Shown: in pieces, positions 53,186 to 58,452 of the stretch
How the letters are laid out: each line of letters starts with the position of its first letter
How positions within the stretch are numbered: the first letter of the stretch is position 1
Assembly (NCBI GenBank): GCA_022071965.1
Contig: JAJVIQ010000006.1
Coordinates: forward strand, 2,351 to 66,350
DNA length: 64,000 nucleotides
DNA from: Gammaproteobacteria bacterium
GTDB lineage: Bacteria > Pseudomonadota > Gammaproteobacteria > JAJPIJ01
Direction of reading: 5' to 3'
Notes under the pieces: generated by a model
The model's database searches: none
Told to the model about the DNA's origin: nothing
What the model saw: the letters and a program-made list of their open reading frames with translations, nothing else
Translations under genes and position numbers: made by a program

Positions 53186-56100
53186 TCATTTGTGTTGCGA
53201 TGGCGATTTGGGAGTTCTCGGAATTGCGTTTGGTGTAGGAGGATCAATGTTTGTTAAACCACACGTCATTAACCTATATCCAAATCTTTCAAAGCTATTA
53301 CTGTGATCAAGCGCCTCACGATGACATCTGTTATCGTTGCCGCAGTTCCTTGACAAATAGGCATAATCACTACCAGGCCCCGTGCCGAACGTCTGCTCAT
53401 ACGCATTGTATGCGCATGTGGTGAAGCCAATGATCGTGCACGCTGTGCCAAAAAACTTCCACGGATTCTCTCCGGTTGGATCGGCAATTCCAATAGGCCT
53501 GCTTTCCGCATATATATACGTGTTGTAGCCGCCTGCCAGTCCAATCGGGTCACTCTGGATATACCGTCCGGTGCTCGGGTTGTAGTCGCGAAAATAGTTG
53601 TAGTGCAGCCCCGTCTCCTTGTCATAGTACTGTCCCGGGAATCGTAGGTTGTAGGTAAATGTCCCGGCGCCTGACGGGGATTCATTCGGCAACGCCTTGC
53701 CGAAGGGGTCGCTGTCCCAGCGCCATACCGGCGTGCCCGCCTCGCTGACGATAAGCCGCGGGGTGTCGAGATGATCGGCGTAGACGTAGAAGCTACTGCC
53801 GCCTGCAAGTATCGCCACCGGCTGGTTCTCGAGGTAGACGGTCTCCTCCAGGGGATTGCCGCTGGAGCTGTACTCACCGATGAGGTGTCCGTCGGGGTCG
53901 TAGACGAAGTAGGTCGGGGATTGCGCGTACTTGCCCGGGTTGACGCGGAGCTCGGTTATCTTCGTCTGCACACAGGTCACGTCCGCAGTGGTCACGCTGC
54001 CGTCGCGGTTGCAGTCCGCCGCGGGTACGGGAGTTACGATGCCCCGGGCCATCAGTACAATCCGTCGCATGTCAGTGACGGTTAGTACTCCGTCGCCATC
54101 GACGTCGCCAGCGAGGTCGAGCGCCGCTCCACTTATCTTCGCGACCCGCTGCCCCAGCCCATTGACGAGATATTGGGTGAAGCCTTCACTGTTCGAGACC
54201 GAGACGAGCCTTCCCCGGCCATCATAGGTGAATTGGCTCGTGCCATCGCTCAGCGTATTGCCGCTGTCGTCGTAGCTGAGCGTCCGGCTGCCGCCCAGGG
54301 AGTCCGACCAGCCGGTGAGCCGGTTGCTCGCATTGTCGATGGTGTAGTACGTATTGATCGCCGCGGCGCTGAGCACCACGCGGTTGCCGGCGGCGTCGTA
54401 GGCATAGCTCTCGCTCGTGCCCGGCCCGCTGAAGGACACCAGCCGGTCGATGGTGTCGTAGGTAAAGCTCTGGCTCACTGGGCTGCCTGAGTCAGTACTG
54501 CCCGTGATGCGCCCGGCCGCGTCATAGTTGAGAGAGACGGTGCTGCTGCCGAGTGGGTAGCTGGTGAGTCGCCCATCCTGGTCGTAGCTGCGGCTGTAGG
54601 GAGTGCCGTTGCCGAAGGTCCACGAGCGGGCCGGCCCGAAGGGCTCGTAGGCAATCTGCGCCAGCAGCGTGGCGTTGCCGGCGGTGAGCTGGGAGACCTG
54701 CCCCGCCGCGTAACCCACGCCGATGACCTGGCCAGAGGGGTAGGTCATCGACACCCGTCGCCCGGCGGCATCGTAGGCATATTGCGTGACGAAACTCCTG
54801 CCGCCCACCTGCTGGGTCTGGCGGATGAGCCGCCCATGAACATCGTAGCCCCAGGTCGTGCTGCCCGAGGCGTCGGTCATCCCCGTGAGGTGGCCTGTGC
54901 CGTTCGCTCCCTGGTCATAGGTGAAGACAATCGGCGCGGCATTCGCGTAAAGCATCTGCGTGAGGCGGTTCAGCGCATCGTAGGAATAGTTGACCTGCCG
55001 ACCGCGGGCGTCGATGGCCGTGCGTACGTTGCCGGCCTCATCAAAGGTCTGCTGCGAGAGGCCGGTGTCCGGGCTGCGGGTACTCAGGGCATTGCCGAGT
55101 CCGTCGACGCCGTACTGCGTCACCAACCCCCGGCCGTCCTGCACGCTGGTGAGGTGGTCGGCCGCGTCGAAGCTGAAGGATGCACCCGCAATGGCGTTGG
55201 CACTGTGGACCATCCGGCTCAACCCGTCGTAGGAGAACGTCGCGGTGTGCGAGAGTGGACTGGTGAGGTAGATGACGTTGCCCTCACCGTCGTACTGCAG
55301 GCGCGTGGTCTGGTTCTGTGCGCCGGTGACGGCGCTCAGCCGGTTAAGGGCGTCGTACTGGCGGCTCACGGTCTGGGCAAGCTCGCCCTGGGGGTCGCTA
55401 ATATCCTCCCTGGTGACGTTGCCGATCGCGTCGAGCGTGTAGGCAACCTGATTGCCGAGATTGTCAGAGACGCCCGTCAGCCGGTGCGCCGCATCATAGC
55501 GGTAGCTGAGGTAGCTGCCGTCGGGGAAGGTGACGCGGGTGACCTGGCCGACGGCATCGCGGGAGTAGGTGGTCGTCTCGCCGCCCTCGCTCTCCGACAC
55601 GAGTCGCCCGCGTGGGTCATAGCTGAAGGTCGTGACCAGCCCATTCGGGTCGGTCATCGACAGCAGCCGGCCGTGGGCATCATAAGCATCAAAGCGCGTG
55701 ACATGGCCCAGACCATCGGCCACCTGCGCCAGGTTACCCTGGCTGTCGTACGCCAGCGTGGTGAGGTCAGCGACATCGGTCCGCGGACCGTCAATCTGCG
55801 TGACCTGGCCGAAGTTGTTATACCTGTACCGCCACGTCCGGCTGCGGCCCGTGTCGGTCGCCGTCACCGTGCGTTGAATCAGATTGCCGCGGGGATCGTA
55901 GCTGTACTCCGTCGTGCGGGTCGGCTCCACCAACTTCGTCGGAAGACGGAAGTCTGCATGCCACTGCGTGGTCATGGTGCGCGCCTCGGGCAGGCCCACC
56001 GCCTCGGTGCGGCTCACCTCCAGGTTGCGGTTTAGGTCGTACGTGTAGGTGGTGATGGTACCGTTGCGGTTGGTCTCCGAGGTGACGTTGCCGTTGGCGT

Positions 56101-57670: not shown

Positions 57671-58452
57671 GGCGCCCGCGGGCTGCCGCTGAAAACCGAT
57701 GGCGAGGAACCACGTTCGCCGAGCAAAGCCGACGTCGCAAATCCATGGACTCTACTCCCTGCGCCGTATTGTTTCCGGATCCTCGGCAGCAACGCAGCCA
57801 ACCCACCCGCGAGCATCAGAAGTGCGCTGGGCAATGGCACGGTTGTCACCTCAATCAACGCTGGCGGTTCTGTCGTGGCCGACAGTATGTTTCCACCCGC
57901 ATCGGTAAGCCCGTTCACGCCTATCGTGATCGGACTCGTTCCATCGACAAACCCGGCGGTGAAAAACAGCCGAACGAGCGTGAACGCGTCTGCCTGCTGA
58001 AGCAGCAGCGTGGCTTCGTCGTCGAAGGAGACCTCAATCAAATTGATATTGCCCGGGCCAGGCGTCGCGGTTGGATTATTCAGCCCCAGTAGCGACAAAT
58101 CGAGCTGATCGCCCAGCACCGGATCGCCAAACGACGCGCTGTTGAACGTCAGGACTGATGGGTCAAAACCGATGTCAACATCGAAACCGCCCAGGCTTGT
58201 CGAGAGATCCAGGCCACTGATGTCCAGATTCAGGGTTACAGGACTTCCGCCTGTGACCGTCTGGCTTGCTGGGCTTACGCTCAAGAGGGGGGCGGCGGCG
58301 GAAGGCAGTGTGAATATGGCAACGAAAATAACCAACGCAAGAGGGATGAGGCGATGCGTCGCCACACTACGTCTGTATAAATTCGCGCAACGCCGGCGCA
58401 CGGATGCGTCGTCGACGTTGGATGGCTGCCGGTGCTTCGGTATCCAACTCAT
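57667..58452 (-). CDS. Cohesin-like domain protein with a PEP-CTERM-like hydrophobic/basic anchor, translationally coupled to the RHS gene
   Basis: Signal anchor, then LSVSPASQTVTGGSPVTLNLDISGLDLSTSLGGFDVDIGFDPSVLTF resembles cohesin type-I strands (vTVpVslsnv.g..afqfdl.YDpsvLe.). Near the C-terminus, TTVPLPSALLMLAGGLAALLPRIRKQ is a PEP-CTERM-like signal, but about 45 aa follow it. The stop overlaps the RHS ATG (ATGA). Confidence 0.5.
   Translation of the reverse strand: MSWIPKHRQPSNVDDASVRRRCANLYRRSVATHRLIPLALVIFVAIFTLPSAAAPLLSVSPASQTVTGGSPVTLNLDISGLDLSTSLGGFDVDIGFDPSVLTFNSASFGDPVLGDQLDLSLLGLNNPTATPGPGNINLIEVSFDDEATLLLQQADAFTLVRLFFTAGFVDGTSPITIGVNGLTDAGGNILSATTEPPALIEVTTVPLPSALLMLAGGLAALLPRIRKQYGAGSRVHGFATSALLGERGSSPSVFSGSPRAP

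Follow-up and report, generated by a model that had tools for sequence, protein, structure and literature searches.

The locus described here raises the question of how RHS-family toxins with a signal peptide are placed and delivered in diderm bacteria. It lies in a stretch of 64,000 nucleotides, hereafter the window, from a Gammaproteobacteria bacterium (assembly GCA_022071965.1, contig JAJVIQ010000006.1, positions 2,351 to 66,350 of the forward strand). On the minus strand of the window, a 261-residue open reading frame (ORF; 57667..58452) is found directly 5' of a 1494-residue RHS ORF (53186..57670), with the stop codon of the shorter frame and the RHS start codon sharing an ATGA. Both ORFs and their overlap had been described in an earlier note, made from the sequence alone, and are present in the ORF list as given there. 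The note proposed that the RHS protein carries a dockerin-like module and its neighbour cohesin-like signatures, and suggested that the toxin is thereby displayed on the producer's surface.

We find this answer likely, with some reserve: the two genes would form a tethering module, in which the cohesin anchor holds the dockerin-bearing RHS cage at the surface or in the matrix of the producer. In other words, a Gram-negative host probably clips an RHS cage onto its surface by a plug-and-socket pair of the cellulosome type. The ATGA overlap is counted as support for a coupled expression of anchor and RHS protein, as far as gene layout can suggest it.

We first consider the RHS protein. The Pfam model Dockerin_1 matches the full-length protein with 25.2 bits, against a gathering score of 22.9, over model positions 1-56 of 57, and the segment scanned alone scores 30.5 bits. 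Both of the calcium-loop-like segments, in which the earlier note had seen a type-I dockerin, lie inside this full-length match. The note had also named a generic EF-hand or an Ig-like fold as assignments that would speak against it, and the profile searches gave neither of them. The generic EF-hand was rejected, with EF-hand models below their cut-offs and TM-scores of only 0.22-0.25 for calmodulin and troponin C. An AlphaFold model, built on an alignment of 24 sequences, shows a loop-helix, a linker and a second loop-helix (pLDDT 88.8), and 29 of its 29 best matches in the PDB are dockerins, with TM-scores of 0.5-0.76 and a root-mean-square deviation of about 2 Å. By profile and by the fold of the predicted structure, the insert is a dockerin.

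The 24 aligned RHS inserts, every one of them matched by Dockerin_1, contain the calcium loops GDxxxDGxxxxxD and DCxxDGxxxxxD with invariant residues, together with an invariant Cys pair that corresponds to C1220 and C1233 of the window protein. Relative to solved Rhs chains the dockerin is an insertion of about 70 residues, placed directly after the conserved G-x-R-x-x-K of the last repeat, where it separates the YD repeats from the Rhs core. About 26 of the RHS relatives listed (C-terminal search, 17; full-length search, 9) also have a dockerin at this site, and the C-terminal domains of these relatives differ. The RHS-embedded dockerins form a subtype of their own, unlike the cargo-type dockerins found beside other cohesins of the family.

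As for the rest of the RHS protein, the repeats are found in 19 stretches (E 2e-111), YD_repeat_2x reaches 258 bits, and the Rhs-associated core is matched by TIGR03696 with 77.6 bits (cut-off 32.5) and aligns with the equivalent region of solved Rhs proteins. The DUF6531 domain is found in most full-length RHS relatives. Among solved structures, the nearest to the window protein are the Rhs cages of type VI effectors, for example 8h8a and 7q97. No PAAR, VgrG, CdiB-type or two-partner-secretion domain was found in the RHS protein or in the window ORFs scanned, nor were chaperone or type VI genes found among the larger of these ORFs, which agrees with the earlier suggestion that the protein is delivered neither by type VI secretion nor by CdiB.

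The RHS N-terminus reads MKLLPQRAIRH, then AAIAALIMLFPGAVA (SAAIAALIMLFPGAVA in a fuller reading), then GE, with a hydropathy of 2.29 at residues 13-27. By eye and by hydropathy only, it looks like a Sec signal peptide, as the note had said. The NCBI annotation of the metagenome-assembled genome (MAG) names the protein “Protein RhsD” (P0142) and places its start at a GTG 229 codons further in, for a length of 1265 residues; this internal start drops the signal peptide and the 200-residue N-terminal domain (56983-57670, minus strand). We prefer the long start because the frame is open and because signal peptides and variable N-terminal domains are present in cohesin-paired RHS proteins elsewhere. 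P0143 and P0145 have N-termini comparable to that of the window protein. The 229 N-terminal residues have no BLAST match among 120 RHS relatives and no Pfam family, and the region of residues 29-232 has a guanine-plus-cytosine (GC) content of 0.574, and of 0.54 at third codon positions (GC3), against 0.65 and 0.84 in the shell. Given the lack of relatives and a codon-position GC unlike that of the shell, we treat these residues as coding on three grounds only: the frame is open, the N-terminus resembles a signal peptide, and P0143 and P0145 offer an analogy.

The upstream protein, or anchor, is 100% identical to P0001, annotated as “hypothetical protein NFCOHLIN_01082” in a Gammaproteobacteria MAG. 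Its N-terminus has a long basic n-region and a hydrophobic core, LIPLALVIFVAIFTL, followed by SAAA, with a hydropathy peak of 2.93 at residues 35-49 and a helix at model residues 2-17. Its first 30 or so residues are unmatched in relatives. Read by eye rather than by a predictor, this N-terminus is a putative Sec signal peptide.

The identification of the anchor comes from its family and its fold, with the Pfam Cohesin model giving 17.1 bits against a cut-off of 24.1, over 50 of 139 model positions. Relatives from a database search form a family of about 200 residues, with 29-48% identity; several of them have precomputed cohesin (PF00963) and/or PEP-CTERM matches, and one is named cohesin domain protein by NCBI. 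The AlphaFold model of the anchor has a pLDDT of 83.4, with strands mostly above 90. When compared to the PDB with Foldseek, all of its 50 best matches are cohesins, of types I, II and III, the best being 1g1k_A (E 7e-10, target TM-score 0.82), and the matches include the non-cellulosomal cohesins of Archaeoglobus and Clostridium perfringens. We identify the upstream protein as a cohesin with the predicted nine-stranded beta-sandwich fold; the earlier description as cohesin-like is thus borne out by fold and family, with its own Pfam score under the cut-off.

After the cohesin domain, a VPLPS-helix-RIRK segment aligns with the VPEP or VPLP motif, helix and basic cluster of relatives, and is the sole motif of the VPLPS type in the window. 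Some relatives pass curated models, with L018 scoring 35.5 against 25.35 for TIGR03370, and with P0006 and P0014 passing TIGR02595. Most relatives end within about 10 residues of the basic cluster, and P0015 and P0019 extend beyond it.

Around the L018 cohesin, which passes the VPLPA-CTERM model and is the second closest to the window cohesin, after that of the short contig L040, the gene of a further VPLPA-CTERM protein lies on the opposite strand at a distance of 2 kb (L018, 6909-7679; 9911-10555). No dockerin neighbour of this cohesin was found within 10 kb. Furthermore, L037:9379-9990, L018:9911-10555 and P0014 have a sub-threshold similarity to NF033554 (PepA) over most of their length, with E from 4e-5 to 9e-4, and PepA-type floc proteins might be cohesin-like, judging from this similarity.

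For the comparative analysis, relatives of the cohesin gene came from individual contigs, from genomes sampled once per species (20 loci) and from metagenomes (72 loci). The genome scan used a 12-sequence alignment. The per-species loci belong to Gammaproteobacteria, Nitrospirota, Desulfobacterota, Acidobacteriota, Verrucomicrobiota, Spirochaetota and Myxococcota, and include the isolate Methylovulum psychrotolerans Sph1, in which the cohesin is paired with a PD40/PKD cargo (L023). Dockerin neighbours were scored by a profile built from the dockerin segments found in this study, and the loci were collapsed at 95% identity, leaving 86 that are non-redundant.

A same-strand dockerin ORF lies within 1.5 kb of the cohesin gene in 50 of the 86 loci. 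Of the 37 loci whose flanks reach 1.5 kb or more on each side, 27 have an adjoining same-strand dockerin ORF, in many phyla, while 395 kb of sequence lying more than 3 kb from cohesin genes contains 2 dockerin ORFs. Together with the recurrence of the RHS pair, this gene context is strong independent evidence for the coupling of cohesin and dockerin that had been proposed. Without recourse to our own profile, Pfam Dockerin_1 matches 10 of 15 large cargo proteins at E < 1e-3; a 16th cargo, a 130-residue ORF in L009, gives 15.9 bits (E 0.016).

The most common layout, with 33 cases, has a cargo with a C-terminal dockerin directly upstream of the cohesin gene. Downstream cargos with a C-terminal or N-terminal dockerin were also seen. 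In terms of domains, these cargos contain TSP_3 with CARDB, Laminin_G_3, PD40 with PKD, SBBP with PASTA, Big_5 or DUF4215, and on this domain content the cargo looks extracellular. Such a diversity fits a generic tethering device. As gene context and domain content indicate, the window pair is one case of a wider module, consisting of a small cohesin anchor beside a variable, dockerin-tagged protein that appears to be secreted. A broader generalization is offered only tentatively: a minimal display system, present in many Gram-negative phyla, in which a single cohesin with an exosortase-type anchor would hold the dockerin-matched protein, armed with an RHS toxin cage in a few lineages, that of the window among them.

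One cohesin-adjacent dockerin cargo, from an Acidobacteriaceae MAG (L025:8870-9961), has a prokaryotic N-terminal methylation (pilin-like) motif, which suggests a dockerin-tagged pilin or pseudopilin.

The arrangement of a cohesin gene followed by an RHS gene with the dockerin at the same site is found in three lineages, namely the window, a Methyloglobulus MAG and a JGI metagenome contig, the last two being among the RHS relatives with readable upstream DNA. In the Methyloglobulus MAG (L037/L038, two assemblies), a gap of 11 nt separates the RHS start from the gene of a 203-residue cohesin with the ending VPLPAA.... In the JGI contig (L113), a 194-residue cohesin ending in VPLPSG... stops 10 nt before an RHS gene of 1685 residues. 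A neighbour-joining tree of 83 non-redundant cohesins groups the three that are RHS-linked in a single clade of 4 leaves; the contig of the fourth is too short for its neighbour to be seen. Such a grouping would be expected if a matched pair were inherited together.

At another locus, L014:7204-11434, two independent assemblies both break the dockerin-bearing RHS gene into three ORFs in a row, and a 93-residue ORF comes after it. Either the gene is a pseudogene, or the break is an assembly or frameshift feature that recurs.

Taking these results together with what is known of each family, the module may work as follows. Anchor and RHS protein would both be exported by Sec, given their signal-peptide-like N-termini. 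If the anchor is handled as PEP-CTERM proteins are, its signal would be processed by an enzyme of the exosortase type, leaving the cohesin fixed to the envelope or to the exopolysaccharide layer. The RHS cage, with its type-I-like dockerin spliced between the last YD repeats and the Rhs core, would then bind the cohesin in a calcium-dependent manner, as the identity of the domains and the conserved gene pairing suggest, and it is by this binding that a loaded cage would come to sit on the surface or matrix of the producer. As in other members of the RHS family, the core would cut off the C-terminal domain of about 95 residues, which would be kept in the cage until a target is met.

Several observations weigh against this proposal. 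In terms of the gene pairing, 10 well-flanked cohesin loci have no dockerin neighbour, and the loci L014/L015 and L039, with a dockerin-bearing RHS protein, have no cohesin gene within 10 kb. In terms of anchoring, the sorting signal of the window protein is under every curated threshold: Pfam PEP-CTERM gives 14.8 bits against 20.7, and TIGR03370 and TIGR02595 give no match, even after removal of the last 35 residues. These 35 residues follow the basic cluster, so that the signal is not at the extreme C-terminus. Of the PEP-CTERM-like anchor in the earlier note, the alignment with threshold-passing signals of relatives stands, but the score of the protein itself does not reach the threshold and the position is unusual. 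The window ORFs scanned, namely those with multiple membrane spans and other large ORFs over the 64 kb, include no exosortase. As for export, an RHS protein of about 160 kDa would have to cross the outer membrane. Lastly, in terms of the toxin, the C-terminal domain of about 95 residues matches only itself in a phmmer search against 1.84 billion representative proteins, and the 400 bp that separate the RHS gene from the convergent DUF3037 gene hold no credible immunity ORF.

Among other explanations, the one that survives best, although we consider it unlikely, is that the cohesin protein acts as an export escort or matrix-loading factor, the cage being released into the matrix rather than held by the cell. 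The domain and synteny evidence applies equally to it, PEP-CTERM proteins have been proposed as part of extracellular polymeric material (PMC9850573), and no other outer-membrane route is encoded beside the pair, among the neighbouring ORFs scanned. Against it, we know of no precedent for cohesin-dockerin pairs in export, and the sequence holds nothing that would separate an escort from static display.

Slightly less probable is a dockerin that binds some other partner (a distant cohesin, a target receptor or a polysaccharide), with adjacency reflecting shared regulation only. The RHS loci with no cohesin gene nearby (L014/L015 and L039) and the difference between RHS-type and cargo-type dockerins would fit such a partner. 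However, the adjacency is far over the background, the pair is found in three lineages with an overlap or spacing of 4-11 nt, and the RHS-linked cohesins group in a single clade, all of which favour the neighbouring cohesin as the partner.

A little lower again we place the possibility of a decaying island remnant, in which the RHS gene has lost its toxin-immunity end and the cohesin gene its stop, leaving a pair that does not work. An orphan C-terminal domain with a GC of 0.467 and no immunity ORF would fit such decay, as would a 35-residue read-through tail that is missing in most relatives, an island with an integrase, an IS3 transposase and tRNA-Met, and the related locus L014 in three pieces. 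In contrast, the two ORFs are intact over 261 and 1494 codons, all calcium-loop residues of the dockerin are conserved along with the core motifs, and the relative P0015 also has a long tail after its signal.

Finally, an ordinary type VI Rhs effector with the dockerin as incidental decoration is very improbable: the solved structures closest to the window protein are indeed type VI Rhs effectors, but the likeness is limited to shell and core, the N-terminus resembles a signal peptide, and the scanned window ORFs include no PAAR, VgrG, chaperone or type VI gene.

The features of the tethering pair, which thus remains our preferred reading, are collected in Table 1.

Table 1. Positions of the features of the cohesin/RHS gene pair in the window.
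Feature	Position	Strand	Basis
Anchor gene, 261-residue putatively secreted cohesin protein with sorting-signal-like tail	57667..58452	-	ORF list
Anchor N-terminus, residues 1-54, putative Sec signal peptide	58291..58452	-	Hydropathy, by eye
Cohesin beta-sandwich, about residues 55-200	57853..58290	-	AlphaFold and Foldseek
Sorting-signal-like segment VPLPSALLMLAGGLAALLPRIRK, residues 204-226, PEP-CTERM / VPLPA-CTERM type	57775..57843	-	Alignment with relatives
35-residue tail past the basic cluster, with stop codon (ATGA overlap)	57667..57774	-	Sequence
Cargo gene, 1494-residue RHS/YD-repeat protein	53186..57670	-	Pfam/NCBIfam
RHS signal-peptide-like N-terminus, residues 1-28, AVA then GE	57587..57670	-	Hydropathy
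Variable N-terminal domain and Gly/Pro/Ser-rich linker, residues 29-232, no family	56975..57586	-	No Pfam match
DUF6531, residues 233-306	56753..56974	-	73 bits, E 2.5e-20
YD/RHS repeat shell	54113..56752	-	19 RHS_repeat and 16 YD_repeat_2x stretches
Dockerin inserted in the shell, residues 1187-1238, two halves of calcium loop plus helix	53957..54112	-	Pfam Dockerin_1
Rhs-associated core, residues 1321-1400, ending DPIGLAGG...IADPTGE	53471..53710	-	TIGR03696
Orphan C-terminal domain, about 95 residues, in the variable-toxin position	53186..53470	-	Self-match only
400-bp spacer to the convergent DUF3037 gene	52786..53185	.	ORF list; hairpin

The C-terminal domain after DPTGE, which the earlier note did not recognise, has no match in Pfam or NCBIfam either. 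RHS relatives align through the core and then diverge, with different Pfam end-domains. With its low GC (0.467, compared with 0.65 for the shell), the C-terminal domain shows the mosaic composition that is usual where RHS ends have been swapped. A membrane helix in this domain was considered and rejected, the mean hydropathy of FFGTACTIIGFTTCAYNAY being too weak at 0.95.

The spacer on the 3' side of the RHS gene contains a terminator-like hairpin (52864-52891). Downstream ORFs were discarded as immunity genes, being Arg/Cys-rich or antisense, and the two longest have no Pfam match. Small ORFs are found 3' of related RHS genes, with 103 residues in L113 and 173 residues in L039. The window protein is, by its sequence, a member of the RHS family with one feature of that family missing, the immunity gene. 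Since no such gene was found, “toxin” is a designation by family membership alone. At the RHS 3' end, the expected place of an immunity gene, two convergent genes are found on the plus strand (51146-52785), where a HipA-like kinase gene (263 residues) overlaps the start of the DUF3037 gene (283 residues).

On the 5' side, GGGGAGGAG is a Shine-Dalgarno-like site ahead of the ATG of the anchor gene, and a promoter scan of the locus gave no match. Further upstream, after a gap of 486 bp, two secreted-looking proteins of 553 and 434 residues are encoded on the minus strand (58938-61918). The first has a partial M23 peptidase match (24.8 against a cut-off of 28.7) and the second has no family; neither is matched by the dockerin profile of this study.

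The pair sits in the low-GC half of the window, where GC is 0.54-0.65 against about 0.70 elsewhere. This half, which is a genomic island, starts at a tRNA-Met with an adjoining integrase and also contains a primase, an SbcCD-like pair, a ThiF/JAB pair and an IS3 transposase. We place the RHS/cohesin pair within an integrative island because the tRNA-Met abuts the phage-type integrase gene and GC drops from about 0.70 to 0.54-0.65 there.

As for the individual genes of the island, the tRNA-Met (32432-32507) adjoins the integrase gene (32450-33694), and the island extends to about 62000. A RepB/PriCT primase gene is found at 34474-36699. A 1172-residue AAA_27/SMC-like protein and a calcineurin-like phosphoesterase make up the SbcCD-like pair (37750-42524), and proteins of the ThiF family and with a JAB domain are encoded near it (44513-47168); both sets of genes are possible phage-defence modules. 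Two overlapping ORFs on the minus strand (47307-48451), with 96 and 276 residues, resemble the halves of an IS3-family transposase, judged from their translations only.

When compared with known systems, both folds of the window pair are those of the clostridial type I cellulosome pairs (1ohz, 2ccl, 1g1k), and the logic is the same, with the cohesin on the anchoring protein and the dockerin on the secreted cargo. Here, in contrast, the host is Gram-negative, a single cohesin has a tail of the PEP-CTERM/VPLPA-CTERM type instead of SLH or sortase anchoring, and the cargo is an RHS cage rather than a carbohydrate-active enzyme, with an internal dockerin that carries an invariant Cys pair. Identity of the window cohesin to solved cohesins is 10-21%.

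The NagH/NagJ “toxin complex” of C. perfringens (2ozn, 2jh2, 2vo8, 2w1n) is a non-cellulosomal cohesin-dockerin assembly of secreted, virulence-associated proteins, and its entries are among the structural matches of the window pair. NagH and NagJ are mutually binding glycoside hydrolases of a Gram-positive, with neither an RHS cage nor an exosortase-type anchor.

Rhs repeats share a polypeptide with a dockerin (and a cohesin) in the ScaO/ScaP scaffoldins of Acetivibrio cellulolyticus and Clostridium alkalicellulosi (PMC3413522, PMC6780208). These are large multi-enzyme scaffoldins of Firmicutes, in which the dockerin is a separate module and not a shell insertion, and neither a separate PEP-CTERM cohesin partner nor a toxin architecture of core plus variable end is described for them.

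In terms of function, the closest analogue may be WapA of Bacillus subtilis, a Sec-exported toxin with YD/RHS repeats that is held at the surface and acts on neighbours without type VI secretion. WapA attaches to the Gram-positive wall by its own wall-binding repeats, whereas tethering of the window protein would be non-covalent, through a separate cohesin protein, and in a diderm.

With type VI Rhs effectors (7q97 RhsA, 8h8a, 8cp6 Tse5, 8uy4 Tse15), the window protein has in common the YD shell, the DPxG core and a variable C-terminal domain. It differs from them by its putative signal peptide, the dockerin of about 70 residues, and the absence of a PAAR/VgrG-binding N-terminus and of a 3' immunity gene. 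With PEP-CTERM/exosortase proteins, such as the floc protein PepA, the cohesin family shares the motif, the helix and the basic cluster; PEP-CTERM proteins have been reported to be likely components of extracellular polymeric material (PMC9850573).

According to one paper (PMC5244752), non-cellulosomal cohesin-dockerin pairs are known and their roles are mostly unknown. A 2026 survey lists cohesin and dockerin among the trafficking domains in one class of polymorphic toxins (PMC13483458), and the 2012 survey of polymorphic toxins mentions neither of them. In the searchable literature, we found no paper that combines cohesin or dockerin with PEP-CTERM, nor one that gives PEP-CTERM proteins a cohesin function or a dockerin partner; dockerin and exosortase appear together only in an archaeal paper, which does not link them, and no description of a module of the window type was found. 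The RHS, dockerin and cohesin families are known, and what is new in the window pair is the type of anchor, the type of host and the cargo of a putative cohesin-dockerin display.

Knowledge of cohesins and dockerins comes almost wholly from the cellulosomes of Gram-positive anaerobes, with “orphan” cohesins and dockerins elsewhere having no assigned role. The present locus and its roughly 86 relatives give these orphans a testable Gram-negative rule, that of a small, exosortase-tailed cohesin beside a dockerin-tagged partner. The finding also joins two questions, namely the role of PEP-CTERM at the surface, and the placement and delivery of RHS toxins with signal peptides in diderms. The broader display system, if it exists, would give RHS toxins of diderms a route independent of both type VI secretion and two-partner transporters. 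Should binding be confirmed, the pairs would be new orthogonal parts for protein tethering, and the RHS version a new form of contact-range toxin deployment.

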